Shown here in pieces: positions 9,012-28,004 of a stretch of 64,000 nucleotides of DNA. The DNA lies in NCBI GenBank assembly GCA_965217775.1, contig CBDCJH010000002.1, positions 3,872,001 to 3,936,000 on the forward strand. Reading direction: 5' to 3'. The stretch is from Acidobacteriota bacterium (GTDB taxonomy: Bacteria > Acidobacteriota > UBA6911 > RPQK01 > JAJDTT01). Under the pieces are notes generated by a model. It had not been told where the DNA came from. It did not search any database and was given only the letters and a program-made list of their open reading frames with translations. Both the position numbers and the translations under genes were made by a program. Every line of letters starts with the position of its first letter. Position 1 is the first letter of the stretch.

Positions 9012-9133
9012 CCTGAACCAGCCGCGGGGAGCGATGCGAAGGTCAGCCCGCATTTCCCACCGGGGGGCACACTCCGGGCATCTGTTCAGGAAATCCGAAT
9101 CGGCGTGGAGGACTGACGAAGAGGTCCATCCGG

Positions 9134-9812
9134 GTGAAGATGATGAATCGACTCTTTTGCGCCTTTCTGCTGCTGATTGGCTTGGTAGCAGTCCGTGGTG
9201 AAAGTCCCGCGAGCACCGAGACCGTTCCTGCGCCCGCCGGACAAGGCGCGATTCGGGTGCATACCGGGAGTATGTGCCCGAATCGCAACGCAGTCCGCCG
9301 GGATGCAGGGACGGTCGAATGCCGTGGCGACTTTTGCCACGGGCTGGTAGGGTCCATGACAGCCGAGACATCCCGGCAGCCAGGACGCGAGATCGTCGCA
9401 CCCGCGGGGGATCGGCCCGCACGAGTATTGGGACAAGCTCGAACGGAGGCGGAATATGAAGCGTTCGTGGCTCTCAAATCGGCGCTCGGACCGCTGGGAA
9501 AGGCCGAATCGGCGCAAGATTTCCTGGAAAGGTTCCCTCTGAGCGGGCTCTCGCCGCTTGCCCACCAAGCGGACAGGGCATCCGGCAGTTACGCGCGCGG
9601 CGGCCCTGGACGGATTTACGTCGTCGCTGGCCCGTCAGCATCTCGAAAAGATCTACAGGCACCTCCACCCTCCCCTACCGGATGAGGACCAGGAGCGATA
9701 TGAGCTGCGGATCTCGCACGGCTTGAACGGACTCGTCGCTCAAGAGAGGGAATACTACCGATTACGGCAAGGACTTCCCCGAACGGCCAGGAGCGGCGGC
9801 TCGGAGAAGTGA
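9134..9812 (+). pseudogene. Exported (TPR-like) protein gene with in-frame MITE insertion and apparent internal deletion/frameshift
   Basis: Signal peptide MNRLFCAFLLLIGLV, 54 MITE-derived codons, then EAEYEAF...FLERFPLS; plausible coding continues in another frame to 9812. Confidence 0.5.
9189..9346 (+). mobile_element. 158-bp MITE copy, TSD GTAG
   Basis: Ends cagtccgtgg / ccacgggctg (9 of 10 bp inverted); GTAG at 9185-9188 and 9347-9350. Confidence 0.95.
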
Positions 9813-9842
9813 CTTCCGGGCGCCCAATCCTCCACTTTCCAG

Positions 9843-10970
9843 TCAAGCCGTGACGCCGGAAACGGCCTTGTTCAAGGCAGGCATCAGTTCCTTGGCGAAC
9901 AGTTCCAGGTTGCGAATCCAACTCGCCTTGTCGTCCCAGTCGAAGCCCATCAGGACGAGGGTGCCGAAGGGACCACTCTCTTCCATCAGCTCCAACAGCC
10001 GCCGGAGCACCTCGTCGACGTCGCCGGCGATGATCTGCTCCTGGAGCCATAAATCCATGTTGCAGTCGGCGTCCGGCATGTCGAGGTCGCGTTTCAGGAT
10101 CCCCCGGTGCCCCAATGAATTGTCCAACAGGGAGGCGATGTACTCGTAGTTCCCGCCCACCGAGTTGTTGCGCGCCAGCTTTACGGCCTCCTCGGTGGTG
10201 TCGGCGAGGAAAATGGCGCGACAGACTTTCCAGGTCCCGGGATCGGCTTCGCGCCCCGCTTCGGCGGCGGCCCGGGCGTAGGTCGCCCAATTGTCCGCCA
10301 GGACGTTCCCGGTGGCCAGAGCTGCCGAGAAGGGAGCGTACCCGCGCTGGCCAGCCAGGGTGAGGGTGCCCGAGTTGCGGCTGATGCCCGGCATGGCGAT
10401 GGGCGGATGCGGCTGCTGGAGCGGCTTGAATATGAATCCGATCCCCGTCGCCTCATCGACGTTCTCTTCGAGCGAGAACTGCCAGAATTTGCCTTCGTGG
10501 TGGTAGGGCGGGTCCGACGCCCACAGTTTCAGGATGGCGTCCAACGACTCCAGTGTCATAGCCCCGCCATCCTTTGGATGCTGGCCGTAGAGCTCCATGT
10601 CGGTGCTGACGCTGTTGGGCCCGAAGCAGAGGTTGAGCCGTCCCTTCGAGAGGTGATCCAGAAACGCGAGCCGCGTGGCTACGTAGGCCGGATGATGCAG
10701 ATTGAGGCACACGGGCGCGGCTCCCAGACGAATGCGTTCGGTCACTCCGAGCACGCGGCCGATGAACACCTCGGGGACCACGATCGGCTCGAACCTCATG
10801 GTGTGGTGCTCGCCGATCCAGAATTCGTCGAAACCGAGTTCCTCCGCCCGGATGACCAGTTCGACATCCTCGTCGAAGCACTGAGCCAGCGGCTTGCTCG
10901 ATGGGTGGTAGGGCATGATGAAAATGCCGGTTTTGATGGGTCGTGCGCCAGCGTTGGTGTCACCTGTCAT
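9843..10970 (-). CDS. LLM class flavin-dependent monooxygenase
   Basis: AEELGFDEFWIGEHH, ERIRLG, LDHLSKGRLNL, KPLQQPHPPI; GAGGAG RBS before ATG at 10970. Confidence 0.92.
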   Translation of the reverse strand: MTGDTNAGARPIKTGIFIMPYHPSSKPLAQCFDEDVELVIRAEELGFDEFWIGEHHTMRFEPIVVPEVFIGRVLGVTERIRLGAAPVCLNLHHPAYVATRLAFLDHLSKGRLNLCFGPNSVSTDMELYGQHPKDGGAMTLESLDAILKLWASDPPYHHEGKFWQFSLEENVDEATGIGFIFKPLQQPHPPIAMPGISRNSGTLTLAGQRGYAPFSAALATGNVLADNWATYARAAAEAGREADPGTWKVCRAIFLADTTEEAVKLARNNSVGGNYEYIASLLDNSLGHRGILKRDLDMPDADCNMDLWLQEQIIAGDVDEVLRRLLELMEESGPFGTLVLMGFDWDDKASWIRNLELFAKELMPALNKAVSGVTA

Positions 10971-11551
10971 GCGCCGTGTTCTCCTCTCGTCGACGGGGCC
11001 TTTGGGGAATGGTTCCGTGCCAGAAGAATGTTGCGATCGGATTATGGAGTCAACCTCAGAAGAGGAATAAGGAGTGAGAGAAGAGAAGGTGACAGGCACG
11101 CTCCCATGGTGATTGGCTCCCGCTCGACGAAACTGAACCAGGAGTGAAAGTAAGGATATAGAACCTGGGCGAGGCGGCGGCACGAATCCCTCGTCGGGTG
11201 GTTCGCACTTCCCCACTTCACCGGTAGCGGGAGCCGGTCGAGCTCGACCCCCGGTTTCTCCCCTGAATCCGCCGGGTCGCCCCCCGTTGGGGAAGCTTCC
11301 GAGTCGTCCAGGCCGGACCTGTGTCGGCAGCCTGCTTGACGTGTGTTTGCGGCCCGTTTGCTCTGGGGGAACGTTCCGCCGGCCCGTTGGTCTGGAACTC
11401 GGAAATCTGTTTTGTAATATTGGATTTTACGGAGATGCGTACGACGGAACCCGCCACGAACTTACCCGATGGGGAGCTCCGCGGGGTTCTCCATTTCTCC
11501 AAGTTCCATGTTCATCCGGCCCGATTTGTCCTGCTGGCCGAAATAGCCTAG

Positions 11552-11709
11552 CAGCCCGTGGCAAAAGTCATCACGGCATTCGACCGTCCCTGCATCCCGG
11601 CGGACGGCGTTGCGATTCGGGCACATACTCCCGGTATGCACCCGAATCGCGCCTTGTCCGGCGGGCGCAGGAACGGTCTCGGTGCTCGCGGGACTTTCAC
11701 CACGGACTG
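11552..11709 (-). mobile_element. 158-bp MITE copy, TSD CTAG, just upstream of the TonB-dependent receptor start
   Basis: Reverse orientation; CTAG at 11548-11551 and 11710-11713. Confidence 0.95.
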
Positions 11710-11739
11710 CTAGTCGATTTCATGCGGGAGATTTCCATC

Positions 11740-14700
11740 ATGTCGATCAGAAGCCTGATCCCTTCTTCCTCTCATCCTCGCTTATGGCGCTCTCTGCGCC
11801 GACTGGGGATCGCGGCGGCGATTCTGTTGGCCGGCACGGTCCTGCTTTCCGCCCAGACCGACACCGGCACCATTCGCGGCTACGTCTACGATGAGACCCG
11901 GGCCGTTCTCCCCGGCGTCACCGTTACCGCCACTTACCAAGGCCGCGGCGTGACCCGGGAGACCCTCACCTCGGAGATCGGCGAATACGTCCTGAGCCGG
12001 GTCGATCCCGGCCTCTACACGCTCCGCTTCGAGTTGCCCGGGTTCGCTCCCTACGTGGCCAAGGACCTGGAGGTGCTGGTGGGACAGACCCAGTCCTTTT
12101 CCCCCGAGATACCGGTGGCCGCCGAGGCCGTTGAAATCACGGCGGAAGCGACGCGGGTCAGCATCGCCCACGACAAGACCCAGCAGTCCAACCATATCGA
12201 CTCTGCCAGCATCGAGGATCTGCCCGTCAACCGCCGCGACTACCTGGACTTGGCGCTGCTGACTCCCGGCGTCGTCGACTCGAACTATGTGGCGGATGAC
12301 CGCGACTACCGCATCGCCCCGACCCCCGCGTCCGGACTCGGTATCGGCGGCGGCGGCGGGCGCGGCAACACCTTCACCATCGATGGATTGGACAACAACT
12401 ACGCCACCGGAAGCGTCCGCTCCTCCATCAGTCAGGACGCGGTGCAGGAGTTTCAGATCAACCGCAATTCGTTTTCCGCGGAACTGGGCGGAGCGCCCGG
12501 GGGAGCCATCAACATCGTCACCAAGGGAGGGACCAACGAGTTTCGCGGGTCCATCTTCGGAGTGCTCCGCAACCGGCGCTTCCAGACCCGCAACCACTTC
12601 GATCCGGCCGACTCGGCGTATACAAGGAGCCAGAGTGGGGGGTCTTTTGGCGGCCCCATCCTGCGAGACAGGACATTCTTCTACACCGCCTACGAACGCC
12701 TCGACCGTCACGAATCCTCGTTCGTTCCGCTGCTCCGGGACAGATCGTTCCTGTACGAGCCGACGCCCTCGCAAAAGGCCTTGGCCGGGGCGCTCGGGGA
12801 CGCGGTTCCGCCCCAGTTGGCCCCGCTGGTCCAACAACTTACGGCGGCCTTGATTCCGGGAAACTTCCCCCACGTCGTCCATCTGTTCGAGAGCAACAGC
12901 GGGGTGTTCCCGTTCTCGGAAGAGCGGCAGCAAGTCATAGGGCGCATCGACCATGCGGTGGGCTCCGGGCACAATCTCTTCTTTCGAGGAAACTGGACAG
13001 GACAGAACAGCCAGAACACCAGCTTCGGTTCGCTGGTGGCCCGCAGCCGGGGACGCAACAACAATGTGAACGATTTCGCCCTGGCGGTCGGAGACACCCT
13101 GGTCGTGGGTCCGGAATGGATCAGCGAGACCTGGTTGGGACTGTCGTACCACGACTTCGGGGTCTTCCCGACCGACCCCCACGGACCCTCCATCGACATC
13201 AACGGATTCGGCCATTTTGGACGAGACTTCATCCTGCCGACTCGAAGCCTCCAACGCAGGGGACAGGCCCGGCAGAATTTCACTTACGTCTCCGGGGGGC
13301 ACACGTTGAAGTTCGGTGCGGACGTCAACCTGGGATACAGCAGAGTTCGGTCCGAGACCTTCTTCAGCGGGCGATTCATCTTCGGAGCGGCCGTCCCCCT
13401 TTCAGCTCTGATCGACGCCAGGGGCGGGCCCGGCGCATCCCAATTCGTCAAGCTGTTGCTGACGGGAGCGGGGGCTCCCCACCTGGCGGCGGCAGTGGAC
13501 CACCCCATCTCCTCACTTCAGGCCTACGCGCTGGGCCTCCCCATCGTTTACCAACAGGGCTTCGGCGATCCTTTCTGGCGCGGAGGGGCGAGTACCTACG
13601 GGTTCTTCGTAGAAGACTCCTGGCGGATCCGCCCGAAATTCCTGCTGACTCTGGGACTGCGCCACGAGCTCTTCCGCAAGTCGAATTTTCCCAGAGACAA
13701 CAACAACTTCGGGCCACGCATGGGATTCGCCTGGAGCCCCGATACCAAGACCGTGGTGCGGGGCGGCTACGGTATTTTCCATGCCCGGATCGACGGCCAG
13801 ATCACGTACATTCGGGACCTGCTCTCAGACGAAGTCCAGCAGATCTTTCAGGTCTTCATCCCCTTGACCGGCATCCCGGGAATCAACAGCGCGCTGACCG
13901 GGCAGACGCTCACGTCGGCGGAGATCTACCAGTCGGTGTTGGCCCGGGGCATTCTGGGCAAACGGCAAATCAGGCCTGAGGACTTGGCCATCCACGGCCT
14001 GGTTCCGACTCCCGGACTGCCGTTGCGCGTCGCGTTCACCGTGGCCGACGATATGGTGAACCCCTACGCCCAACAGGCAAGCCTCGAGATCCAAAGAAAC
14101 GTCGGCGGATTTGCCCTCTCGGCCGGGTACAACTTCAACCGCGGCGTCCATATCAGTCCGTGGTGAAAGTCTCGCGAGCACCGAGACCGTTCCTGCGCCC
14201 GCCGGACAAGGCGCGATGAGGGAGCATACCGGGAGTATGTGACCGAATCGCAACGCAGTCCGCCGGGATGCAGGGACGGTCGAATGCCGCGACGACTTTT
14301 GCCACGGGCTGATATCGTCCGCCCGCTCGACGTCAACATCTACCGCGCCGGAACCAACGCCCAAGGACGACCCATCGTCGGTTTTCACAGGCCGGAGATC
14401 CTGCAGGACAACGTCTATGGCAGTTGGTCCAATTCCTTCTATCACGCCCTGATTCTGCAATTGGAGAAGCGCTTTTCGGACGGCGTCGTGATCTCGGCAC
14501 ACCACACCTGGAGCAAGGCGATGGACGAGATCACCGACTACAACTCCTCGTTCCAACCTCACCTGCAGTGGGACGCCGCGGCCGAAACGGCCCTCTCGTC
14601 CTACCATCGCGGTCACCGCTTCGTCTTGCGCACCCTGGCGAAGCTGCCCTGGAAGGCCGGCCGGGGGAAAGGGCTCGGACACAACCTGTTGGGCGACCTC

Positions 14701-15090
14701 ACCCTTTCCGGGATTGTCACGGCACGCTCGTTTGCCCCCTTCAACCTCAATGCCGGCTTCGACAACGTGGGCGACCGCCACACCGACACGCACCGTCCCT
14801 GGGGCCTGGGCCGCAACGTGGGCATCGGACCCAACCTCTTCAGCGTCGACCTGCGCCTGAAGCGCCGAATTTCGCTCGGAGAGGACAAGAGCCTGGACAT
14901 CGTCGCCGAAGGGTTCAACATCCTCAACCGCACCAACTTCAAGCACGTCAACGGCACCGTCGGTACGCTCACCCTGGAGGAGCTCCCGTCCTCGTACACG
15001 GGACGCCGGGGGCCGGTGACGGAACCGTTCTCGTACACCTCGGCATTCGCACCGAGGCAGTTCCAGTTTTCTCTCCGTCTCAATTTCTGA
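11740..15090 (+). pseudogene. TonB-dependent receptor (carboxypeptidase regulatory-like N-terminal domain) interrupted by a MITE
   Basis: GTIRGYVYD...PGVTVT, VQEFQINRNSFSAE, NNFGPRMGFAW, C-terminal PRQFQFSLRLNF; removing 162 bp rejoins GVHI-VRPLDVN in frame. Confidence 0.9.
14154..14311 (+). mobile_element. 158-bp MITE copy, TSD ATAT, inside the TBDR gene
   Basis: ATAT at 14150-14153 and 14312-14315; most diverged full copy. Confidence 0.95.
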
Positions 15091-15202
15091 TGGGCCGAAC
15101 GTAGCTTCCCCGGACGGCAAAGCGAAGGACCGAAGAAATCCGTGCTATTTGCTCCACTATGCGCCGGAGCCGACCCGCCGGCGGTCGGGAGCCGCGCCGG
15201 GA

Positions 15203-16876
15203 TCAGACTCGCGTGGGCAGCGTCCGGTATTCGATGCTCAACTCCAGGCTGTGGAGGATCATCTCGATGCGGACCTGGGGGTTGCGCTTCTCGAGGGTGG
15301 CCTCCAACCGGTTGACTCCCTGCCGGATCCAGTCTCCGTGCGTGAGGTCGTAGGACATGATGTAGTTGCCCTGGTACTCGATGGGCCCCGGACCGACCCG
15401 GTTCATGGGGATCTCCAGGCCGGGGTTTTCAGGCAACGGACGCCCGTTCCAGTTCAGTTCCAGGTCATCTTCCCACGTCAATCCCACCACGGTCAGGCTC
15501 AGCTTGATCTCCTGGAGCATGCCTCTGCGGCGCGCCATGTCCAGGTCGTCCGCCACCAGGACTTCCACCGTCTTGGTCTTCCCTTCGGCCAGCGCCTCGG
15601 GCAGTTGATGCACGAAAGCCTGGAAGACGTCACTGCTGCGGGGGTACTTATTCAAGCAGTCGTAACAGCCGACCTCGGTATAGAGCTTGTCCTTGTGCTC
15701 CAGCGTCTTGGGATTCCCCAACTCCTGGAACACCACCTCGGCCTCCTTCAGATTGTGGCCGATATGGTGGTGGAAGTTGAACATGTAGATCCCGTCGACT
15801 CCCTGACGCCAGGCGTTGGCGGCTCCGGCCCGGAGTGTCGCCGCGGGTGGACGCCGGTGGTAGCCCGGCCCCACTTGTTCGGAAGTGCAGGCGTAGATCC
15901 GGCACGAGGTCCCTTTCGCCAGGGCGACGAACTCGTCGTAGGGCATGCTCGTGGCCGTATCCCAATGGACCCCGGGAGAGACGTAATCGACCAAGCCCTC
16001 CTGGATCCAGGTCTTCAACTCCAGTCCGATCTGATGGCACTTTTCCAGCGTCGCCGGGACCCGGATCCCGAATCCCAGGGGGCGGCCTCGATCGGTTCCG
16101 ATGCGGCTGAACAAGGCCCTGGCTTCACGCAGATACCGGGTCAGGATCGGCCTCCCCTTCTCGATGTCGGGGAAATAGTGCCCGGGCTCGCGCAGGAAAT
16201 CCCACTCGAAGCCGTCGGCATCATAGCGGGTGCACGCGTCCTCTACCAGTTGCAGACGGTGCGCCCGGACCTCAGGTATCGAGAAGTTGAGGCCGACGCA
16301 TTTCTCGGCGTAGACGCTTTCGGGACTATGGACGCCCGAGCCACAGTTGTCTCCCAACTCGTATTCTCGATGGGCAACCCGAAAGTGGCTGGGCCATTGA
16401 AAACGGGGACCGTGCAGATCATTGAAGCGCATGCCGATCCAGTACTGCAGGCCGGCTTCGTGAGCCAGCTCCAGAGAGAGCTGCCAGGGATCGATGCCCT
16501 GGTCCAACAGTCCTCGGATACAGGTCTGCTGTTTCCACTCGCTGACGTGAAGGAACGTGTCCCGATCGATCCCCTCGGCCTCGGGGACCCGGGTGGGAAA
16601 CAGGGGGACCGCGTCGCCGAAGCCGAACATGTGGCAGACGACGGCGCCGATCTGGGTCCCGACGAACCGGCCCACGGCTTCGTAGACGAAGTCCTCAGGC
16701 GTCCTGGGAGGAGCGGGGTAGAAGAGGAAGCTGCCGTCGTTGTTGTAGAACAGAGGCGGCAGCGAAAGGCGCTCCGTCTGGGCCTCAAGAGGCCGGGCCG
16801 ACGCGACTCCGGCCCCCGCCAAGGTCAGCGCGCCCACGTTCCGCTGAAACTCCCTTCGGTTCAGCCTCTTCGCCAT
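15203..16876 (-). CDS. Tat-exported TIM-barrel glycoside hydrolase-like protein (GHL10/DUF187-like)
   Basis: NRREF Tat motif; YNNDG, GMRFNDLH, YDADGFEWDFLR, QGVDGIYMFNF. Confidence 0.75.
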   Translation of the reverse strand: MAKRLNRREFQRNVGALTLAGAGVASARPLEAQTERLSLPPLFYNNDGSFLFYPAPPRTPEDFVYEAVGRFVGTQIGAVVCHMFGFGDAVPLFPTRVPEAEGIDRDTFLHVSEWKQQTCIRGLLDQGIDPWQLSLELAHEAGLQYWIGMRFNDLHGPRFQWPSHFRVAHREYELGDNCGSGVHSPESVYAEKCVGLNFSIPEVRAHRLQLVEDACTRYDADGFEWDFLREPGHYFPDIEKGRPILTRYLREARALFSRIGTDRGRPLGFGIRVPATLEKCHQIGLELKTWIQEGLVDYVSPGVHWDTATSMPYDEFVALAKGTSCRIYACTSEQVGPGYHRRPPAATLRAGAANAWRQGVDGIYMFNFHHHIGHNLKEAEVVFQELGNPKTLEHKDKLYTEVGCYDCLNKYPRSSDVFQAFVHQLPEALAEGKTKTVEVLVADDLDMARRRGMLQEIKLSLTVVGLTWEDDLELNWNGRPLPENPGLEIPMNRVGPGPIEYQGNYIMSYDLTHGDWIRQGVNRLEATLEKRNPQVRIEMILHSLELSIEYRTLPTRV

Positions 16877-16938
16877 GATGATCCTCCCGCGAGCCCTGTC
16901 GATGCGGGTTTTGGAATTCGCTTCCCGTCAAGAGACCC

Positions 16939-18171
16939 TCAGGCCGGAATTCGCACGGCCCGGCGGCTGGCCGACGACTCCTTGGCCGCCTCGATGATCT
17001 CCAGCATGTGGACATTGTCTCGAATCGGCGAGGGGGCCGGGGCCCCGGTCCGCGAGGCCTCCAGGAAGTCCCGGAACAACTCTTCGGCCATGATGCCGCC
17101 GTAACCCGGAGTCTGCGGAATCTGGTAGGTCTTGCGGTGGCGGCGGCCGCTGACCCAATGCCGGGCCTCACTGTAGAGGGTGTAGGTTCCACCCGCCACG
17201 GCGGCATTCGTCGTCCCGTGCTCCACCGGCTCCACCAGCGGCAGGATGGAATAGCCTTCCGTTCCCCGCATGCCGATGTAGAAATCGTAGACGGCCCGGC
17301 TGCCCTTCAAGTGATATCCGGCCTGGAACGTCCCCAGCTTGCCGCTCTCGAAGCTGAGCAACAGCAATCCCGTGTCTTCGACGGCAATCTTCTCCGGATT
17401 CAGGTTCCCCACCAGGGCCATGACTTCCACCACCCGCTCCTGCATCAGGTACAACACCAGGTCCAGGCAATGGCACCCCAACCAGGACATGATTCCGCTG
17501 CCCGCGGTCTTGGGATCGAAGATGTAGGCGGAGGTGTCCCGGTATTCCACCAACCCGTTCAGGAGCTTGGCCTCGATGGTCATGATGCGGCCCAGCGCAC
17601 CATCGTCCAGGGCCCGCTTAAAGTCCATGACCATGGGATTGTAGCGCCACTGCAGCATGGCGCCGGCCGTCACGCCCTTCTTCTCCGCCACTTCCGCAAC
17701 CCGGCGGAGGTGGGAGGAGTGGGTCGTCGCCGGTTTGTCGTACAGGACCGGCAAGCCGGCGGAGACGACCTGCTCCAGAATGCCCGGCGCCTGGTCCGGA
17801 CGGGCGCAGACCGTCACCGCGTCCAGGTCGTCTCTGGCCAGGAATTTGCCCAGGTCGGTGGATTTCGAGGCCACCTTGGACGACTCTGCGGCAAGTTTTT
17901 CGACGTCGGCCAGCTCGGTGGCGGCACAGACGTGGATCTTGCCCACCTCCGAAAGCTGGTCCAGGACACGCACGTGTCCCCCGGCATGACCGTGGCCGGA
18001 GATAGCTCCCACCACCATGGACCCTTCCCGGATTGGGCTCGACCCGAGGTTCGATGGGAGGACGCCGCCGCTCGATCCCAACGGCTCGCCACCCCCCAGA
18101 GCTTCCCGTCTCAAGTTGCCCATCGCCGCCACCGAAGGCAGCGCATAGCCGAGAAAGCTGCGTCTCTGCAT
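16939..18171 (-). CDS. Gfo/Idh/MocA family oxidoreductase with Tat-like signal
   Basis: MQRRSFL; VLYDKP, QWRYNP, GSGIMSWLGCHCLD. Confidence 0.88.
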   Translation of the reverse strand: MQRRSFLGYALPSVAAMGNLRREALGGGEPLGSSGGVLPSNLGSSPIREGSMVVGAISGHGHAGGHVRVLDQLSEVGKIHVCAATELADVEKLAAESSKVASKSTDLGKFLARDDLDAVTVCARPDQAPGILEQVVSAGLPVLYDKPATTHSSHLRRVAEVAEKKGVTAGAMLQWRYNPMVMDFKRALDDGALGRIMTIEAKLLNGLVEYRDTSAYIFDPKTAGSGIMSWLGCHCLDLVLYLMQERVVEVMALVGNLNPEKIAVEDTGLLLLSFESGKLGTFQAGYHLKGSRAVYDFYIGMRGTEGYSILPLVEPVEHGTTNAAVAGGTYTLYSEARHWVSGRRHRKTYQIPQTPGYGGIMAEELFRDFLEASRTGAPAPSPIRDNVHMLEIIEAAKESSASRRAVRIPA

Positions 18172-19027: not shown

Positions 19028-19150
19028 CCGGCTGGCTCTTCGGAACCCGCTCCCGTATTGCAGGCGATTCGAGCCGTTCGCGGCTTTGTGCGCCGGCCGC
19101 CGCCACGATCTCCCGGCCGTAAGACCAACTTCACCCTGCCTTGGGGGTAT

Positions 19151-20632
19151 TCAATTCCTGCGAATGCGAAACGCGTAGACACTGCCTCCACGCAGCCACA
19201 GGCGCAGTTTCACGATCCGTCCCCGCAATTGGCTCAGGTCCCGCCGATTCTTCCAGCGCACCGGCACTCGCAGGCCGTCGACCTGCCGCAGCACGAGGGC
19301 CTCTTCTCGGGAAAAGCCCGGGATCGGCTCATCGTCGGCATTCAGAACCTCGACTGTGAGTTCGCCGTTCGGGACCTCCAGGTTGACCACGACTTCCTCG
19401 CCCTCGACCCGAAACGGCCGGGTGGTGGCCCAGCCCAATCGATCGGATGCAGTCAACGAAACGAAACGATCCAGCGGGACCGTGGCCAAGCCGATGCCGG
19501 TGGGCGCTCCAGCGCTTCCCTGGCCGCTGTGAGAGATGGGACGCCCCACGTAGTAGATCCAGTGCTGGTCCTTCCAGGTGACGATGTTGGGAGCCGGCTG
19601 GATCCATTTGGCGTCGAAGCTTCCGGCGGGGCCGCGGCGCAGGAACGGCTGGTTCCGGTACACCCACTCCAGATTCCAGGGGCGATCCCCGCGAGTCATG
19701 GCCAGAAAGAAGTCCATCTCCTCGCTCTCCCCCGGCCGTTCCAGCGACCAGAGCAGCCCGAATTGGACACCCTCGTAGATCCATCCGTTCAAGCTGTAGA
19801 TCTGGCGGGTCCACTCGTAATCCTTCCTGCCGCTCTCCCGCCCCAGACACCACTCGCGCACGGTCGTCCACTCTCCAAGGTGACTCCGGAGCTCCGTCCA
19901 TGAGTTCACCATGTCCCGGGTTCCCCGAATCTCTCCGCTCCCTCCCCCCGTTCCATAGTCGGTACGGGTGTAGAGTCGGTAGACACCCGAATACGGATCC
20001 CAGAGCACTTGGTTGATGGTGTCCGCGGCCCGGCCGGTGATGGGCCGGCCCTGATCGTAATAGCTCCAGCGCAGGCCGTCGGGGGAATAAGCCAGGGCAG
20101 TGGTGGTGCCGTATCCCTTCCCGGCTCCGACGGCCGACTTGTACTTGTGGCGAGGGTCCTTCTCGTTGGGATCCACAAAGGGGCAGTAGGCCTGCGGCCG
20201 GCCGATCTGATAGATGTTGTTGGCCCGGCTGCCGTCGAATTCCACGAGCCCGAGCCGGGGCTTGACCCAGCGGACCCCGTCCCGGGATTCGGCATAGCAG
20301 TAGGTCGCCGCATCCGCGCCGGAGCCGGCGGCCCGGTACCAGATGCGGAACCGGCCGTCCTCCCGGAGCACGGAACCGACGATGGGCACCCCGAAGTCTT
20401 CCCACGGAGTGTCGTCGACGATGACGGGCCGGCCGCCATTCGCTTTGGTGGGCCGCCTGAGCCGGCGCGCCAATAGGTGCTTCCCGGCAATGACGTGGTC
20501 ATCCACCAAAAGCTGCTTCCGCTCTCCGAATTGAAGAACGGGTCCGTCACCCGGCTCGCCGGCATGGGCCGAGGCGAAGAGCGTGATCACGAACAGCGCG
20601 AAGAGTGGCCGGCGACACCACGGGCAGAGCAT
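19151..20632 (-). CDS. Exported beta-propeller glycoside hydrolase-like protein
   Basis: Signal peptide, QLLVDD, FRIWY, YAESRDGVRWVKPRLG, SPDGLRW (Asp-box-like), DRFVSL, C-terminal beta-sandwich. Confidence 0.75.
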   Translation of the reverse strand: MLCPWCRRPLFALFVITLFASAHAGEPGDGPVLQFGERKQLLVDDHVIAGKHLLARRLRRPTKANGGRPVIVDDTPWEDFGVPIVGSVLREDGRFRIWYRAAGSGADAATYCYAESRDGVRWVKPRLGLVEFDGSRANNIYQIGRPQAYCPFVDPNEKDPRHKYKSAVGAGKGYGTTTALAYSPDGLRWSYYDQGRPITGRAADTINQVLWDPYSGVYRLYTRTDYGTGGGSGEIRGTRDMVNSWTELRSHLGEWTTVREWCLGRESGRKDYEWTRQIYSLNGWIYEGVQFGLLWSLERPGESEEMDFFLAMTRGDRPWNLEWVYRNQPFLRRGPAGSFDAKWIQPAPNIVTWKDQHWIYYVGRPISHSGQGSAGAPTGIGLATVPLDRFVSLTASDRLGWATTRPFRVEGEEVVVNLEVPNGELTVEVLNADDEPIPGFSREEALVLRQVDGLRVPVRWKNRRDLSQLRGRIVKLRLWLRGGSVYAFRIRRN

Positions 20633-20777
20633 CTCCCCTGCCGCTGGCCCCGCCAGCCGAGAGACGGCCTCCGATGTTCGGACCAGGAACGGAGGGACGG
20701 CCGCGGCGGCAGAGTTGGTGAGGCTCATTGCGGGAAGAGGCAAGGTTCGCAGATCCTCGACGAACTTGTCAGGCCCC

Positions 20778-22208
20778 TCAGGGATCCGGCGAGCGGATTC
20801 CGAACAGCACCTTGGTGCGCGCCTCCAAGCCTTGCGCCAGGGATTCGACCAATCTCAGACCATTCAGGGCTTCGGTCCGGCTGTAGTAGGTGAGAGCGTC
20901 TTGGGCCAGATCCCCTTCTCCGGCCTGCAACAGCGCCAGCGCGATTCCCTCCACCGTGGCCTGCTCGTCAATCAGGCGAGACTCGAAGGCGGTCAAGGCC
21001 TCCATGACCTCCGGCAGGAATTTCGCTTCGTGGGATTTGGCCAGATAGAACAGACGCTTGCAGGCGCGGAACGCGTACCGCGTCGATTCCACCCCCATGT
21101 CCTGGTCCCTGATGTGGCGGGAGTCCTCGCCTGCGGTGAGGTAGCGATGCTTCTTGAACTCGGGCGGCACATCTTGAACGCCGATGCGGTAGGGGACAAA
21201 CGGCGCCGCTACCGGAGGGGCCGGAGCGACCCACAAGGTCCCCAACTCCCGATGGACGCCTTGGCGCAAGTGGGCCACCTGACCGTAACCGGCGGAATCC
21301 CTGGTGAGTTCCGGGGTCCGAACGACCTCGATCATGTCCTTCAGGCCGATCCGGCCTGCCCTGGCCCGCAGGCGGTCCTCGATCATCTGGACTGCCTCGG
21401 CCTTGTGGGCAGACCGTCCATACACCTTTCCCACATGAAAGGGCTCTCCCGATCCGGGGTCGTACCAGCCACGTTCCACGGCGAAGGAAATCAAGTTCCT
21501 GGATCCCATGAAATCCGGATGCTCCCGGTAATTGAGTGGAACCTCATGGATATAGCCGGGACGAGACACCCGAATGTCGTCCGGTCCCAATCGTTCGGCA
21601 ACCCAGAGGCCCTGGCCGCCCGCGAAGTTGATCAGGACCCACCCCTCATCGGCGTCGGCGAAGAGATGGGAGTTGCCTCCGTAGGTGGAAAAACCGTACC
21701 GGTCAATCAGCTCGCCCACGATCTCCACGGCCGCGCGTGCGCTTCGGGCGCGTTCCATCACAATCCTGGACAGGTCGCTGTAGTTTGGCCCGCGCTGCGG
21801 ATTGGGCGTCATCTCCCGCAGCTCGATCCGGGAGCCGGACGACACGTCGCGGGCCGCGACACCGTGTTCGTTCAATCCGCCATTCGTCAGGGGCGCCGGG
21901 AAACCCGCAAAGTAGGAATAGTTCATGGTCAGGTAGCGAAACGTGGTGGGCACCTGCGGAATCTCGATGAGTTCTCCGGGATAACGGGATTCCGGAGTCG
22001 CTCCCACCGTCAGGGTGGAACCGGCAGGATGCTGCCGGCGGGGCACGATCTCCAACCAATGGCTGGAAGGCTCATCGCCGTATCCGGCCAGAAACACACT
22101 GCCGTCCCGGGTCAGGTTCTTCCCCACGTAGATTGCATAGCTGGCCTCGGCGCCAGAGCCGGTGGCGAGGCTGATCATCAAGCTGGTCAGCACGGTACGT
22201 ATTTTCAT
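20778..22208 (-). CDS. Peptidase C69-like (dipeptidase/Ntn hydrolase) exported protein
   Basis: Signal peptide then SYAIYVGKNLT, GGLNEHGVA, ERARSARAAV, FADADEGW. Confidence 0.75.
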   Translation of the reverse strand: MKIRTVLTSLMISLATGSGAEASYAIYVGKNLTRDGSVFLAGYGDEPSSHWLEIVPRRQHPAGSTLTVGATPESRYPGELIEIPQVPTTFRYLTMNYSYFAGFPAPLTNGGLNEHGVAARDVSSGSRIELREMTPNPQRGPNYSDLSRIVMERARSARAAVEIVGELIDRYGFSTYGGNSHLFADADEGWVLINFAGGQGLWVAERLGPDDIRVSRPGYIHEVPLNYREHPDFMGSRNLISFAVERGWYDPGSGEPFHVGKVYGRSAHKAEAVQMIEDRLRARAGRIGLKDMIEVVRTPELTRDSAGYGQVAHLRQGVHRELGTLWVAPAPPVAAPFVPYRIGVQDVPPEFKKHRYLTAGEDSRHIRDQDMGVESTRYAFRACKRLFYLAKSHEAKFLPEVMEALTAFESRLIDEQATVEGIALALLQAGEGDLAQDALTYYSRTEALNGLRLVESLAQGLEARTKVLFGIRSPDP

Positions 22209-22264
22209 GGCGGTGTCCTCATTTTCTTGGCGGCCAGCTCAATCCTGACAGAAAGAGGGGAGAA

Positions 22265-22330
22265 TGCGGGGGTTTGTAACCCTCGATTCCGGGTCGCCGA
22301 TGAAGAGGGGGACAGGAATGTCCCCCCTCC
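22265..22330. repeat. REP-like palindrome pair (REPIN-like)
   Basis: gcgggggtttgtaaccctcg and agggggacaggaatgtcccccctcc (GGAG foot on minus strand); similar pair at 34837-34915. Confidence 0.6.
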
Positions 22331-22414
22331 TGGAGTGCCCCATGTTTCTCCCCGGACTCTGCCGGGGTGCCAGCCGGTGGGGAAACGTCTATCTGATACG
22401 AGCGTCGTCCAAGA

Positions 22415-22828
22415 CTACACGTCCACCCGGACGTGCTTCATGGCCTCGTAGGCCGGAGACGGCTTGCCCTGTACGTGGAGGAAGGGGTATCGGTAGTCCT
22501 CCTCTCCCACCCAGCGGGACTCGCCGGTCATGAAAATCACGGTGTAGGCGCGCCGGGAGCGCGGGCTCCGGTTGGGCTCGCTCCGGTGATAGGTCAGGCA
22601 ATGGTGGAACCCAACGCTTCCTTTGCTCAGCTCCACCGGAATCTCATCCCCCAGACGGCTCAGAGCCTCTTGGGTCAGCTTCCAGGTATTCCCGGGCACG
22701 TCCGTCCGCTCGTGATCGAGCAGGCCCAACTTGTGGCTTCCGGGGATCACGGTGAGGCAACCGTTCTCGCGGGTCGCATCCTCCAACGCGATCCAGGCCG
22801 TCAGCATCCGGTAGGGCTGGAAACTCCA
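22415..22828 (-). pseudogene. Orphan 3' fragment of the PhyH gene at 24221-24982
   Basis: About 408 bp direct repeat of 24227-24634 (offset 1806); no 5' half. Confidence 0.92.
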
Positions 22829-22913
22829 ACGCGCAGCTGATGGTGACTGTCACCTGCTTGCTTGCTGGTGGTTACCCGGTCGCCTTCTATCATGATCACC
22901 CGCTCCCTTCTTT

Positions 22914-24083
22914 TCATGCGTTCTGAAGCAACATCGCCAGCTCGGAGACGCTGATCGCCTCAACGCCTTCGGTGACCGGGAAGCGCTCGTCGCCGGAATG
23001 CGCGACGAACGCATGGGCCGGCCTCAGGTCCGCGCGGGCGTTGTGGAAGCCGCGGTCCAGTCTCGGGGCGCGGCCCCGCTTGATCTCTATCGCCCACAGT
23101 TCGCCGCTCGGCAACTGAAGCGCGAGATCGACCTCGGCGCCGGCGGAAGTGCGGTAAAAACTGGCCGTCGTCCGTTCCGGGGCGGCCGCGAGCAGATTCT
23201 CTATCACATATCCTTCCCAACTGGCGCCGGCCACAGGATGGCCGGCCAGCGCATTGAAATCGCCAATGCCGAGCAGAGCGTGCAGCAGGCCGCTGTCGCG
23301 TATGTAGATCTTCGGCGATTTCACAAGCCTTTTCCCGACATTGGCGCGCAAAGGAGCCAGGCGCCGCACCAGCAGCAAATCGGTCAAGAGTCCGATATAG
23401 CGATTCACGGTTTGCACGCTCACACCCAATGACGAAGCCAGCCGGGAGGCATTCAACAGGCCTCCCTGGCTGTGGGCCAGCATGATCCAAAGGCGTTCCA
23501 GCGTTTCCGCGGGGAGGCGGGGCCCGAACAAGGCGACGTCGCGCTCCAGGTAAGTCCGGATAAAGTCCTTGCGAAGAAGAAAGCTACGCCTTCCGTCAAC
23601 GGCCAGAAAGCTGTCCGGGAAGCCGCCCCGCACCCAGAGCCGGGTGGGCGTGTCACTGCCGCCCGCCACCTCGAGGAGGTGGAACGGCTGCATGTCAATA
23701 TAGGCGATCCGGCCGGCAAGGCTCTCGCTGGACTGGCGCAACAGATCCATCGACGCGGAGCCGAGGATCAGGAATCGTCCGGTCCGTTTTCCTCGCCGCC
23801 GGCCGCTGTCGATGACCCCTCGAAGATCCTGAAACAGTCCGGGAACTCTGTGGATTTCATCGAGAATCACGAGGCGGTTTTCGTAATGGCTCAGGAACAG
23901 CGCCGGGTCGCTCAGCTTTTGCCGATCGGTTCGGTCTTCGAGGTCGAGATATAAGGCTCCGCGCTCTTCGCCGATATCCAGCGCGAGCGTGGTCTTGCCA
24001 GCTTGGCGCGGGCCGATAATGGCCACCGCTGCCTGGTAACCAAGCGCCTCAAGAACGCGGGGCTTGATATGCCGCTCTATCAT
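22914..24083 (-). CDS. AAA+ ATPase with DUF4143 domain (COG1373-like)
   Basis: GPRQAGKT Walker A, VILDEIH Walker B, SESLAGR, KRLVKSPKIYIRDSG, EVDL...AIEIK. Confidence 0.92.
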   Translation of the reverse strand: MIERHIKPRVLEALGYQAAVAIIGPRQAGKTTLALDIGEERGALYLDLEDRTDRQKLSDPALFLSHYENRLVILDEIHRVPGLFQDLRGVIDSGRRRGKRTGRFLILGSASMDLLRQSSESLAGRIAYIDMQPFHLLEVAGGSDTPTRLWVRGGFPDSFLAVDGRRSFLLRKDFIRTYLERDVALFGPRLPAETLERLWIMLAHSQGGLLNASRLASSLGVSVQTVNRYIGLLTDLLLVRRLAPLRANVGKRLVKSPKIYIRDSGLLHALLGIGDFNALAGHPVAGASWEGYVIENLLAAAPERTTASFYRTSAGAEVDLALQLPSGELWAIEIKRGRAPRLDRGFHNARADLRPAHAFVAHSGDERFPVTEGVEAISVSELAMLLQNA

Positions 24084-24122
24084 CCTTGTATATTATCCAT
24101 ATAATGGACAATTAACAAGGAT
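24082..24122. promoter_or_regulatory. AT-rich 19-bp imperfect inverted repeat at the ATPase start (candidate operator)
   Basis: atccttgtatattatccat ata atggacaattaacaaggat; 16 of 19 positions complementary. Confidence 0.55.
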
Positions 24123-24220
24123 AGGATCCACTCCGAGGAAAGAAGCCGTCTATGTATTCCACAGGAACGAGAATGCCTCCGCTCGTGGACGCGTGGGCGG
24201 GTCCGGCACGCGTTCCCGAC

Positions 24221-24982
24221 TTACCCGTCCACCTGGACGTGCTTCATGGCCTCGTAGGCCGGAGATGGCTTCCCCTGAACGTGCAGGAAGGGATACCGGT
24301 AGTCCTCCTCCCCCACCCAGCGGGATTCGCCGGTCATGAAGATCACGGTGTAGGCGCGCCGGGAGCGCGGGCTCCGGTTGAGCTCGCTCCGGTGATAGGT
24401 CAGGCAATGGTGGAATCCCACGCTTCCTTTGCTCAGCTCCACCGGAATCTCATCCCCCAGACGGCTCAGAGCCTCTTCGGTCAGCTTCCAGGTATTCCCG
24501 GGCACGTCCGTCTGCTCGTGATCGAGCAGGCCCAACTTGTGGCTTCCGGGGATCACGGTGAGGCAACCGTTCTCGCGGGTCGCATCCTCCAACGCGATCC
24601 AGGCCGTCAGCATCCGGTAGGGCTGGAAACTCCAGTAGTACATGTCCTGGTGGGGCGGGACCACGCCCCCGTCCAGCGCCGGCTTGGCAAAGAGCCCGTC
24701 GGCGTAGATGTCCAGGTCGGGGCCGAGGATCCGCTCGACGACCGCTGCCAACTTGGGATGCGTGGCCACGGACCGAAAGGCGGACTCGCGGTGGAGCAGC
24801 CCGAAGGCGTTCCGGAGCGCGGAAGGATTGGTCGGCTCCCACTTGAGATCGCCCTCGGGGTAAGGAAGCTCCCTCCTTTCCAGGACATCCACCCGGGCCA
24901 TGAGTTCGTCCATCTCCGCAGGAGTGAAGACGTTGTCCACAGTGACGTAACCGTTCTCGTCAAAGAAGCTCTTGAGGCTCAT
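24221..24982 (-). CDS. Phytanoyl-CoA dioxygenase (PhyH) family protein
   Basis: FFDENGY, PPHQD, TAWIALEDATRENGCL, HCLTYHRS...RRA. Confidence 0.92.
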   Translation of the reverse strand: MSLKSFFDENGYVTVDNVFTPAEMDELMARVDVLERRELPYPEGDLKWEPTNPSALRNAFGLLHRESAFRSVATHPKLAAVVERILGPDLDIYADGLFAKPALDGGVVPPHQDMYYWSFQPYRMLTAWIALEDATRENGCLTVIPGSHKLGLLDHEQTDVPGNTWKLTEEALSRLGDEIPVELSKGSVGFHHCLTYHRSELNRSPRSRRAYTVIFMTGESRWVGEEDYRYPFLHVQGKPSPAYEAMKHVQVDG

Positions 24983-25109
24983 CGATTCTCCCTCTCCGGA
25001 CCTTCCTGCCCAATGCAGCACAACAATATAGACGCAGCTCCCTTCCGGAGCAAAGCCGGGTGTGGTTCTGGCAAGACGGTCGGAGCCGCCGGAAACGGCG
25101 CCATTGTGG

Positions 25110-25892
25110 TCAGCTGGAACTCTTGCCGGCGGCTTTCAGTCCATACAAATTCAGGAGTTCGATGAAGTCCTGACTTTGACGAAATCCGTCGAAAACGCCG
25201 TCCGCCGCCAGCCGTTCCTGGTCCGCGAATCCAGCCGCCAGCGCCCTCCCCAGATACTTCAGGCACTGGGGCTGGTCCCCCATTTCGGCAAAGAGGCGGG
25301 CCAGATTGTAGTTCGTCTCCGAGTCCATTCCCATGGGGTCCGGATAGGTCACGCGGGAGACATTCGTTGTCTTGAAGATTTCCGGGTCCAGGAGCGCGGC
25401 TTGGAGGTAGGCTCGGCGTGACTCCTCGTACCGGCCCCGCATCATCTGGCCGTAACCCAGATTGACGTAGTAGGACGGCTTGGGATCGAGGGCGATGGCC
25501 TTTTCGAAATAGCCGGCCGCCTGCTTGTACTTTCGATTCGAAAGGGCGACGATTCCCAACGTGTTGTAACCCGAGGCGTATCCCGGCTGGAGCCGGATGG
25601 AGCGTTGCGCGGCCTTCCTTCCCTGCCAGTATCGCCCGGTCCGGCAATAAGCGATGGCCAACTTGTTGAAGATGGCTTCGTGATACGGATTCAGCGTCGT
25701 CGCTTCGACGTATTTCAGGACCGCCAGATGGTCCTTTCCCTCTTTCATCATCTCGTCGGCCTCCCCCATGAGGCGGTATGCCGCGATCACTTGCTCCTGT
25801 GGAACCGGCAACTTCTTGATGCGTGAAGTACCGCAACCGAGGAGCGACCCGGTCAAAACGATGATGGCTGCGTCCCGGAATCGTAGGGACAT
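25110..25892 (-). CDS. TPR lipoprotein
   Basis: Lipobox LLGC, TPR units, YNLARLFA. Confidence 0.82.
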   Translation of the reverse strand: MSLRFRDAAIIVLTGSLLGCGTSRIKKLPVPQEQVIAAYRLMGEADEMMKEGKDHLAVLKYVEATTLNPYHEAIFNKLAIAYCRTGRYWQGRKAAQRSIRLQPGYASGYNTLGIVALSNRKYKQAAGYFEKAIALDPKPSYYVNLGYGQMMRGRYEESRRAYLQAALLDPEIFKTTNVSRVTYPDPMGMDSETNYNLARLFAEMGDQPQCLKYLGRALAAGFADQERLAADGVFDGFRQSQDFIELLNLYGLKAAGKSSS

Positions 25893-26057
25893 TGTTCAGT
25901 TGCGTCCGAAACTCCCCGGCGTCTCGGACCTGGGTTCGGAGCGCGAAACTCGGCGACGGGAACCGTATCCTTGTATGCTCCCGATTATATCGAGAAAGTT
26001 CGTTTTCGGGTGCCGGGCTCGAATCCTTGGCGCTTCATGAAAAGGGAGGTCGCAAGT

Positions 26058-27563
26058 ATGACTCTTCACAGGATGTTGGTTGTTCTCATCGGAATCGGCC
26101 TGTCGCTGCAGCCAGGCGCCGGGGCCGGCAAGGAGACGGTCCTTTTCCCGTTCGACGACTACAGCGTTCCCTTCAGCAAGGGCTTGGTGCTCGAACTGAT
26201 CCCGGGCCGGAAGGGCGCGGTCAACAAGGGCACCGGAGCCGATCCCCTGCACCCGAGCAAACCGGTCGTCCCTCCGGGCATGCCGGGAGACCCGGACCAC
26301 CCGCGGGTCTACTACTACGGCACCGTCCTGAAAATCGATGGCGAGTACCGCATGTGGTACACCGGTTGGGACAAGGACAGGAAGAGGCAGGTCCTCTATG
26401 CCGTCTCCCGGGACGGGGTCCGCTGGGACAAGCCGGACCTGGGACTCGTCGAGTACAACGGGAACCGGCAGAACAACCTGGTGCTGTCCGACGGCAAGGG
26501 GCCCATGAAGGGAGCCTTCTGCCTGGTCCTCCACGAGCCGGACGATCCGGACCCCGGACGGCGCTTCAAGATGGTCCGGGAAGAGCATCCGCGAGCCATC
26601 ATGGCAGCCTACAGTCCCGACGGGCTGCACTGGACCGACTCCTCCAACAACCCCATCATCAAGAGCAGCGGCCTGGAGACGGGCGGCCTGATTCGGTTCA
26701 ACGGCTTCTACTATTTGAACGGTCAGGGGGGACCGATCCCCCACCCCGTCCCCAAGGCCCGGAACCGAATCATGGTCACTTTCGTCTCCCACGACTTCGA
26801 CCATTGGAGCGATGCGGCCCATCTCAGCTTCCGGAGGGATCCCATCCCACCGCGTCCTCTCAACGATTTCGAGATCCATCGCGGCGAACAGGTCCACATG
26901 GGGGCCAGCCTCTGGAACCGGGGGAACGTGATCCTCGGCTTCTACGGCCAATACCACAACCAGACCAACGACCGACGCTATTCGACCTGCGACCTGGGCC
27001 TGGTGGTGAGCCACGACGCCATCCATTTCAAGGAGCCGATCCCCGACTTCAAGATCCTGCCCTCCTACGAGGAACCGGACGGGGCGGAACCGCGGCTGAT
27101 CCAGGGGCAGGGGTTCGAGAACATCGGCGACCGGACCTTCTTCTGGTACAGCATCTGGGTCGCGTTCGACCCGGAGGGGCCCACCGGTGTCCGTCTGGCC
27201 ACCTGGGGCCGGGACCGGCTGGGATATTTCGCTGCGGCGCCCCGGACGCAGGGCGCCCATTTCTTCTCTACGCCAATCGAATTGGATTCCCCGCAGACGG
27301 AGATCTACGTCAACGCTTCGGGGTTGTCCGAGACGAGCCAACTCCGGGTCGAGGTCCTGGACGGCCGGCTCCAGCCAATGCCCGGTTATTCGGGAGACGC
27401 TTCGATTCCGCTCCGGAAACCGGGACTGCGGCAACGGGTGGCCTGGAGCGGCAAGGACCAACTGGCAGGAGCGGACGGGCCAATCCGCGTGCGCGTGAAC
27501 TGGGAAGGGATTTATCCGGAAGACGCTCGCCTTTACGCCGTCTATGTGGTGGAGAGCGATTAG
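26058..27563 (+). CDS. Exported beta-propeller glycoside hydrolase-like protein (related to 19151-20632)
   Basis: GGGAGG RBS, signal peptide, YRMWY, YAVSRDGVRWDKPDLG, SPDGLHW, DRLGY. Confidence 0.78.
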   Translation: MTLHRMLVVLIGIGLSLQPGAGAGKETVLFPFDDYSVPFSKGLVLELIPGRKGAVNKGTGADPLHPSKPVVPPGMPGDPDHPRVYYYGTVLKIDGEYRMWYTGWDKDRKRQVLYAVSRDGVRWDKPDLGLVEYNGNRQNNLVLSDGKGPMKGAFCLVLHEPDDPDPGRRFKMVREEHPRAIMAAYSPDGLHWTDSSNNPIIKSSGLETGGLIRFNGFYYLNGQGGPIPHPVPKARNRIMVTFVSHDFDHWSDAAHLSFRRDPIPPRPLNDFEIHRGEQVHMGASLWNRGNVILGFYGQYHNQTNDRRYSTCDLGLVVSHDAIHFKEPIPDFKILPSYEEPDGAEPRLIQGQGFENIGDRTFFWYSIWVAFDPEGPTGVRLATWGRDRLGYFAAAPRTQGAHFFSTPIELDSPQTEIYVNASGLSETSQLRVEVLDGRLQPMPGYSGDASIPLRKPGLRQRVAWSGKDQLAGADGPIRVRVNWEGIYPEDARLYAVYVVESD

Positions 27564-27635
27564 CGGATTCTTATGGGTTCCAGGGAAATCCCTCCCGCAC
27601 TACGAGATCTCTGCCCGACGGGTCCCGGGGCAAAC

Positions 27636-28004
27636 TCATACAGCGATGACCTTTTGGCGGGGAGAATAGCAGTCCGTGGTGAAAGTCCCGCGAGCACCGA
27701 GACCGTTCCTGCGCCCGCCGGACAAGGCGCGATTCGGGTGCATACCGGGAGTATGTGCCCGAATCGCAACGCCGTCCGCCGGGATGCAGGGACGGTCGAA
27801 TGCCGTGATGACTTTTGCCACGGGCTGATAGAGTCGAATCACTTTCGGTCGATCGCGCTTTTCAAAATGACACCGGACAGCATCCGGCATCGCGGCGTAA
27901 AGCTGCGGAAGCGTGCCTGCTTCTGTGAGAATCGAAACCCCCAATGCGCGCGCCGTGAATCCACTCTCTGGCGCCTCTTCGACGACGAATACAATTTCCT
28001 TCAT
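27636..28004 (-). CDS. Small HicB-like protein carrying an in-frame 54-aa MITE insert
   Basis: MKEIVFVVEEAPESGFTARALG...DAVRCHF...PKVIRLY [insert] SPRQKVIAV. Confidence 0.72.
   Translation of the reverse strand: MKEIVFVVEEAPESGFTARALGVSILTEAGTLPQLYAAMPDAVRCHFEKRDRPKVIRLYQPVAKVITAFDRPCIPADGVAIRAHTPGMHPNRALSGGRRNGLGARGTFTTDCYSPRQKVIAV
27670..27827 (+). mobile_element. 158-bp MITE copy, TSD ATAG
   Basis: ATAG at 27666-27669 and 27828-27831. Confidence 0.95.

Follow-up and report, generated by a model that had tools for sequence, protein, structure and literature searches.

Insertion sequences (IS) of the IS5 group generate 4-bp target duplications of the YTAR type. ERIC, an imperfect palindrome similar in size to the 158-bp element considered here, has a core that is conserved across many genera and is mostly intergenic, occasionally intragenic with an open frame. 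Rickettsia palindromic elements (RPEs) are presented in an excerpt of PMC10969869 as palindromic elements of ~150 bp that can occur within genes and lengthen the product by a peptide while leaving the reading frame intact, nearly half of them lying in open reading frames (ORFs); intragenic ERICs are listed in the same excerpt. QMITE2 of Coxiella burnetii is, according to a portion of PMC5896051, a hairpin-type miniature inverted-repeat transposable element (MITE) that is flanked by 7-11 nt direct repeats of variable sequence and serves as an insertion site for IS1111, a member of the IS110 family; a gene extended in frame at its 3' end by a MITE is described there as well. Taken together, the two partial texts report in-frame MITE fusions for RPEs, intragenic ERICs, QMITE1 and Anabaena MITEs (PMC10969869, PMC5896051). 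Here we analyze a MITE present in four full copies in a 64,000-nucleotide stretch of the genome of an Acidobacteriota bacterium (hereafter the window; C2:3872001-3936000 of the 6.43-Mb assembly G000, 62% GC; positions without the prefix C2 are counted from the first letter of the window). With a probability of roughly 0.85, this MITE is moved in trans by an IS5/IS1182-like IS, its insertions into genes are mostly purged, and the 54-residue peptides that it occasionally contributes by read-through are a side effect and not an adaptation.

The four copies of 158 bp, with their inverted ends and the 4-bp duplications GTAG, CTAG, ATAT and ATAG, had been noticed in an earlier, sequence-only reading of the window, and all were recovered where that reading had placed them (Table 1). 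The inverted ends start with CAGYCCGTGG and extend over ~18 bases (CAGYCCGTGGYRAAAGTC at both sides). In the window, the 18-base end pattern is matched nine times for 0.36 matches expected, a number that none of 100 shuffles reached; one of the nine matches is the solo end of Table 1, which the earlier list did not contain. The element is predicted to fold into a single long imperfect hairpin (-120 kcal/mol, z = -12). The net gain of 162 bp per insertion (158 + 4) calculated in the sequence-only reading was reproduced.

A genome-wide BLASTN search with copy 1 as the query yielded 278 loci, of which 213 are full-length and 65 partial. Full-length copies range from 143 to 162 bp: 149 of them are 158 bp long, 34 have 159 bp, 20 have 160 bp and ten have other lengths; the commonest sequence variant, referred to below as the master copy, is represented by 46 identical copies. 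The longer copies are the older ones, as the median identity to the query decreases from 97.5% for the 158-bp copies to 91.2% and 88.1% for the 159-bp and 160-bp copies, respectively. The length divisible by three after duplication, put forward from the four window copies, is that of the dominant class (149/213) and not that of the older copies. A perfect 4-bp duplication borders 154 of the 213 full-length copies, and most of the remainder match at three positions out of four. Over these 154 sites the target logo is C-YTAR-G; the second position is T in 91% of them, and the third is A in 86%. The duplication shows a mild asymmetry, position 4 being a purine in 124/154 sites and position 1 a pyrimidine in 105/154. 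Note that, among copies with a perfect duplication, the tetramers are also asymmetric when read in the orientation of the element (e.g. GTAG 12 versus CTAC 2, GTAA 8 versus TTAC 0), and that gene orientation does not account for this.

As stated in the sequence-only reading, the window does not contain a cognate transposase. We therefore consider the rest of the genome, in which pairs of end motifs located 300-6000 bp apart were searched for. This search led to three full copies of an IS of 1475-1476 bp (C2:310455-311929, 316892-318366 and 2325898-2327373), two of which are identical to each other, the third being 84% identical to them. The ends of this IS (CAGCCCGTGGCAAAAG) have 16-20 bp in common with those of the MITE, and the right end of one IS copy matches the right end of the MITE at 20/20 bases, while the interiors of the two elements have nothing in common. 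The three copies are flanked by CTAG/CTAG, TTAG/CTAG and TCAA/TCAA. The intact copy encodes a 452-aa transposase with a DUF772 and a DDE_Tnp_1_6 domain, both scoring above the Pfam cut-off (60 bits versus 23 and 26.7 bits versus 25.1, respectively). Because an IS with the same ends and 4-bp duplications was found, the assignment of the ends and targets to an IS5/IS1182-type DDE transposase, made from the window alone, is supported, and so is the non-autonomous character of the element. The MITE, which carries no gene, would thus be moved in trans by the DDE transposase of the resident 1475-bp IS5/IS1182-like IS; the enzyme would cut a target of the C|YTAR|G type and duplicate its central 4 bp. 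The two identical IS copies lie 5 kb apart and have an altered C-terminus (probably a frameshift), and further fragments of the IS are present at C2:2803309, 3755059 and 1874963. A BLASTN comparison of the MITE with a plasmid collection gave no match, and plasmid-borne relatives of the 452-aa transposase are at most 52% identical to it.

The element is recently active, as had been proposed. Indeed, the site of copy 3 is empty in the closest relative, G007, where the two flanks (99% and 98% identical) abut, and it is empty in the other relatives as well; in addition, contigs of the public runs X1 and X4 join position 14151 to position 14315, with 1-3 differences over ~700 flanking bases. The site of copy 2 is also empty in G007, the flanks abutting with a 4-bp overlap. 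The spacer that harbors copy 4 is ~141 bp shorter in G007 and G005 and has no match to the element there. As for copy 1, G007 carries an unrelated sequence of similar length between 9087 and ~9564. This ~480-bp segment (9087-9564) is located between a PQQ-dehydrogenase gene and the next conserved block, and it begins with a signal-peptide-like ORF start at 9134. In this uncultured Acidobacteriota lineage, the element can serve to mark very recent changes of the genome.

Table 1. Coordinates of the copies of the MITE in the window, of its conserved core, of the interrupted receptor gene and of read-through ORFs elsewhere in the genome.
Feature	Position	Strand	Description	Context or evidence
MITE copy 1	9189-9346	+	158 bp, target duplication GTAG	intergenic, within a ~480-bp segment specific to this genome
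MITE copy 2	11552-11709	-	158 bp, target duplication CTAG	divergent intergenic region upstream of the receptor gene
MITE copy 3	14154-14311	+	158 bp, target duplication ATAT	inside the receptor gene, in-frame TGA at 14164-14166
MITE copy 4	27670-27827	+	158 bp, target duplication ATAG	intergenic, 107 bp past the stop of gene 25971-27563
Solo MITE end fragment	6274-6307	-	element positions 125-158	directly after the stop of ORF 5515-6273
Conserved structured core, 112 nt	9212-9323	+	coordinates for copy 1; same part in every copy	alignments A2, A3 and A5, model R1, covariation
TonB-dependent-receptor-like outer membrane protein gene	11722-15090	+	split by copy 3 into 11722-14166 and 14239-15090, one frame	Pfam, coding score, uninterrupted in relatives
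L089	C2:6054954-6056810		AlbA_2 before the insert, HATPase_c_4 and helix-turn-helix after it	G006 orthologue continuous across the site
L088	C2:5280871-5284494		He_PIG/laminin-G protein	residues 917-969 missing in the homologues of 5/5 relatives
L085	C2:3462527-3463504			G006 continuous across the site
L087			sulfatase	insertion common to G006, where the gene is fragmented; counts against long-term tolerance
L081			outer membrane protein	orthologues match only up to the insert; looks truncated or fragmented
L086			copper amine oxidase	truncated downstream of the insert

The sequence-only reading placed three of the four window copies inside genes, two of them being read through. Pfam supports a single one of these host genes, namely the receptor gene, which contains copy 3, and this copy introduces a TGA in frame. 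CarboxypepD_reg and OMP_b-brl_4 matches flank this copy on both sides, OMP_b-brl_4 being recognized in the same frame on ORF 11287-14166 and on ORF 14239-15090; as the TGA at 14164-14166 is supplied by copy 3, the receptor gene is interrupted and not extended. No Pfam match was obtained for the ORFs spanning copies 1 (9134-9685), 2 and 4, whose codon-usage scores outside the element are comprised between -0.18 and -0.34 per codon, versus +0.23 to +0.31 for the neighboring real genes. The coding score is negative downstream of the element in the copy 1 ORF and in part 11287-11550 of the copy 2 ORF, and that of the receptor gene does not turn positive before the ATG at 11722, which lies downstream of copy 2; the true start of this gene is most likely this ATG or that at 11740. 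The three open frames or more announced for the element do exist, since copy 1 is free of stop codons in 5/6 frames and the three peptides quoted were reproduced; the apparent read-through in the window stems from the fusion of these stop-poor frames to chance ORFs in high-GC DNA. Annotators are thereby warned that such frames yield long false ORFs and false 5' extensions in a high-GC genome, as they misled the sequence-only reading. Another long false ORF of this genome is ORF 25892-27649, which overlaps ORF 25971-27563 on the plus strand: only the latter displays a coding-like codon usage (GC3 of 0.82 versus 0.46). Note also that this is the only assembly in which copy 3 breaks the receptor gene (11722-15090), which has two paralogues, 82-86% identical, at C2:3141198 and C2:3810912.

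At the scale of the genome, the element is strongly depleted from genes. Genes were called with a codon-usage model trained on long ORFs (4284 genes, 85% of the genome). A copy was classed as intragenic when, after removal of the element and one duplication in silico, one stop-free frame scored as coding on both sides. An estimated 17 of the 213 full-length copies fall in this class, as compared with 64.4% of 3000 random positions (binomial p ~4e-67 versus 0.644). Even use of the observed target tetramers would place 99 of 154 insertions in coding sequence. From these figures the depletion amounts to approximately eight-fold. Moreover, intragenic copies are on average younger than the others (median identity to the query of 97.5% versus 94.9%, one-sided p = 0.02), which is expected if they are slowly purged. 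Selection is the probable cause of the depletion: insertions into genes would occur and be mostly removed, the survivors being found between genes and often at a stop codon regenerated by the duplication. The duplication of 36/213 copies includes the stop codon of a called gene, which the insertion thereby regenerates. For copies with a perfect duplication, there are 22 such cases, when even use of the target tetramers outside genes would give 12.5 (Poisson p = 0.009). We did not retain stop-codon targeting as a separate mechanism, as the excess is modest and can be explained by target preference, tolerance and crude gene calls.

If the ends and the targets of the element are those of an ordinary MITE, its interior is less so. 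BLASTN detected the element in 8/8 other genomes of the genus, in 0/6 genomes of the sister genus and in 0/26 other genomes of the order, and, in a wider sample of the phylum, in 19/301 genomes and 11/185 genera (E <= 1e-8). Outside the genus, the copies are mostly full-length, with 71-78% identity; they have the same kind of ends, NTAN-type duplications and, in most cases, a length of 158 bp. In one distant copy, this interior is enclosed by ends that differ strongly from the usual ones. A covariance model of the 112-nt interior (R1), built from 25 sequences, matches 19 of 151 sampled genomes of the phylum Acidobacteriota, including the unpublished genome G016, and 14 of 105 genera. In twelve further loci, the core is flanked by inverted-repeat ends of at least ten types, with TA-containing duplications of 3 or 4 bp.

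The comparison of these distant copies provides evidence that the core is conserved as a fold. In a MAFFT alignment of 15 cores from these end types, 92.5% of the cells pair, and compensatory double changes are observed in 23/31 pairs, as compared with 9-16 in slid controls and 14.5 +/- 1.7 in shuffles, none of 500 shuffles attaining the number observed; the alignment has a covariation score of 0.60, versus at most 0.10. Similarly, a full-length alignment of 27 sequences gives 28/45 pairs and a score of 0.36, versus at most 0.09. Conserved internal loops, which are not symmetric, separate the stems, and one G.U pair persists in 13/15 cores. Counted on the plus strand of the element, there are 120 G.U cells and 27 A.C cells (these cells are not independent). 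Compensatory covariation thus indicates that the interior is conserved as a fold, and better so than the ends, and the conserved length of the element follows from the conserved fold without any appeal to reading frames. Within this genome, covariation is weak: among 144 distinct copies, 9 pairs show double changes, for 4-7 in slid controls, the copies being too closely related for a test that is informative only with distant lineages.

These data raise the possibility that the MITE is the vehicle of a selected, strand-specific folded RNA or single-stranded DNA (ssDNA) module, variable in its apical hairpin and conserved in its three asymmetric internal loops, a module that would serve the element or its host and would have spread through the Acidobacteriota after being captured or kept between the ends of at least ten IS5-type transposons, the cargo being kept and the vehicle changing. 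We hold this proposal only tentatively, at slightly less than an even chance. The range of R1, the diversity of the ends around the core, the compensatory changes, the asymmetric loops and the fact that the partner IS and the MITE are alike in their ends only all argue in its favor. On the other side, an Rfam search of window positions 9000-15000 (E <= 1) gave no match, and that of six copies from other lineages (E <= 10) gave only chance matches to miRNA hairpins (18-21 bits for cut-offs of 79-268). A likeness of the ends to parts of RNase P RNA or of the cobalamin riboswitch was dropped, as Rfam gives no support to it. Nor does the element show an orientation bias relative to flanking genes (tandem contexts, 55 same and 65 opposite; stop-codon sites, 19 same and 17 opposite) or to replication (102 versus 106). 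In the RNA libraries X15 and X17, the contig excess of the element over its flanks is about the same as in the DNA-like runs X1 and X4, and this equality does not allow any conclusion about transcription. The weak covariation within this genome also counts against the proposal, and repair, rather than selection, might keep palindromes symmetric. A single degenerate motif of the core had 0 matches in viral_contigs, a result that says little since it relies on one pattern only. The core could aid the transposition or the persistence of the element, or act as a small RNA. If it is functional, we are dealing with a structured nucleic-acid module that is kept while transposon ends are exchanged, and why some MITEs keep their insides becomes directly testable.

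The other feature of the element that could have been selected is its compatibility with reading frames. Owing to the 162-bp gain and to the small number of stop codons, an insertion in the right frame of a gene would add 54 residues without truncation. Eleven of the 17 intragenic candidates are read through without a stop, the other six containing one. Seven of the 11 read-through ORFs were compared with relatives (L082, L083, L084 and L090 were left out). Three of these insertions (L089, L088 and L085) have an empty counterpart in relatives. In the case of L089, the insert measures exactly 54 residues and is located between two Pfam domains; outside it, the protein and its orthologue in G006 are 94% identical. 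These insertions provide a clean natural example of in-frame inserts of 54 residues with empty alleles for comparison. The four remaining ORFs are less favorable: L081, L086 and L087 appear broken, as detailed in Table 1, and L080, a putative gene, has no homologue in the five relatives. No in-frame insertion common to several species within an intact gene was found among the ORFs compared.

According to the sequence-only reading, the length of the element and its low stop content let it colonize coding sequence, in the manner of RPEs; the 162-bp gain and the shortage of stops would then be an adaptation. We regard this explanation as very improbable. It accounts well for the 11 read-through candidates, for the three insertions with empty sites, including the exact insert of L089, and for the fact that 158 bp is also the commonest length in distant lineages; furthermore, five of the six frames of the master copy are open, versus four in the majority consensus and ~1.6 on average in mononucleotide shuffles. 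However, the element is depleted from genes, and read-through is not more frequent than expected by chance, as the open frames of each copy predict 8.3 cases when frame and orientation are random (11 observed, p = 0.14). The only insertion found to be shared between species, in the sulfatase gene L087, sits in a fragmented gene, older copies have 159-160 bp, no more than 2-4 frames are open in the copies from other lineages, and the conserved fold suffices to explain the conserved length. Lastly, a control MITE family of the same genome, family B (161 bp, TA duplication, ends GGAGCCTGCGCGG, ~54 copies, e.g. C2:3340079-3340240), has a gain of 163 bp and a similar intragenic share, with 3 distinct intragenic copies of 53 (4/54 rows, one locus being counted on both strands; Fisher p = 0.77 versus 17/213), this control having little power. 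The colonization of coding sequence is hence not supported, in view of an approximately eight-fold depletion, of read-through at chance level and of the state of several of the genes hit. What stands of the exact addition of 54 codons is three read-through insertions with empty sites, one of them exactly 54 residues long; as for frame usage inside genes, read-through copies do exist, yet not above chance, and L081, L086 and L087 are broken. Frame preservation describes a few copies and is not supported as a strategy of the element. The few young in-frame insertions that persist would be best read as a side effect, not as an adaptation.

Finally, a REP/RAYT-type or integron attC-type palindrome, which the long imperfect hairpin with its conserved unpaired bases could evoke, was rejected as next to inconceivable in view of the clear inverted ends, the 4-bp duplications in 154/213 copies, the precise empty sites, the full-length IS with the same ends and the dispersion of the copies as single units, outside any array.

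Several results weigh against the explanation that we favor, i.e. a MITE moved in trans by the IS5/IS1182-like IS, purged from genes and read through as a side effect. The best NCBIfam match of the 452-aa transposase, IS1182, reaches 171 bits for a cut-off of 270, and the next one, IS5_4, 80 bits for a cut-off of 140. The codon-usage gene caller is crude: the classifier flags 88% of 2052 deep-genic positions and also 16% of 395 intergenic positions, so that the number of 17 intragenic copies is an estimate, only four of the intragenic cases having been confirmed by homology. A plain MITE would need the opposite of what is seen here, where the core is better conserved than the ends, and that model does not explain it. 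Lastly, only 0.7% of mononucleotide shuffles reach five open frames out of six, and the length plus 4 is divisible by three in 12/17 copies with standard ends from other genera, ten of which are 158 bp long. These two observations may betray some selection for frame compatibility, the excess of open frames being less striking than it seems because the element is a near-palindrome whose two strands are not independent.

Compared with the systems described so far, the element most closely resembles the MITEs derived from IS5/IS1182: it is small, non-coding and present in many copies, it has the same ends as a resident IS whose transposase carries DUF772 and DDE domains, and it is bordered by 4-bp YTAR-type duplications. 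It differs from them by its 112-nt interior, which is unrelated to the partner IS, covaries and is better conserved than the ends. Like RPEs, it sits in frame in at least three genes; unlike them, it is intragenic in at most ~8% of the cases, is read through at chance level, has no old shared in-frame copy among those found, shows clear duplications and a partner IS and belongs to another phylum, the comparison being based on descriptions and not on sequences. The frequent in-frame residence in functional genes that characterizes RPEs is thus not a property of this element (17/213 copies intragenic, 11 read through). ERIC differs by its lack of what is seen here, namely defined inverted ends, duplications, a partner IS and a core found behind many unrelated ends. 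A literature search, which did not extend to ISfinder, returned no description of the 158-bp family. The most fitting assignment is therefore to the IS5/IS1182-type MITEs, as a family that is new with respect to this literature; the element is ordinary as a MITE, its conserved core being its most unusual feature.

A parallel with QMITE2, here again by description and not by sequence, is provided by a 1522-bp IS110-family element that encodes a 317-aa transposase (217 bits with the NCBIfam IS110 RNA-guided transposase model). Its four genomic copies (C2:1656632-1658153, 3134897-3136418, 5760211-5761732 and 6039606-6041127) are all inserted at one site in the apical stem of the MITE, between element positions 64 and 71. 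The 4-bp duplication of the MITE sets it apart from QMITE2.

Two types of derived arrangements were also observed. Head-to-tail pairs of the MITE, separated by 4-5 bp, are present at C2:483865-484186, 2174457-2174777, 4957274-4957593 and 515390-515583, an arrangement that looks like the insertion of a second copy into the duplication of a first. Four derivatives of ~97 bp (C2:985933-986027, 3579131-3579227, 4889634-4889730 and 5007959-5008055) are devoid of element positions 53-106; they keep the ends and have lost the apex of the core.

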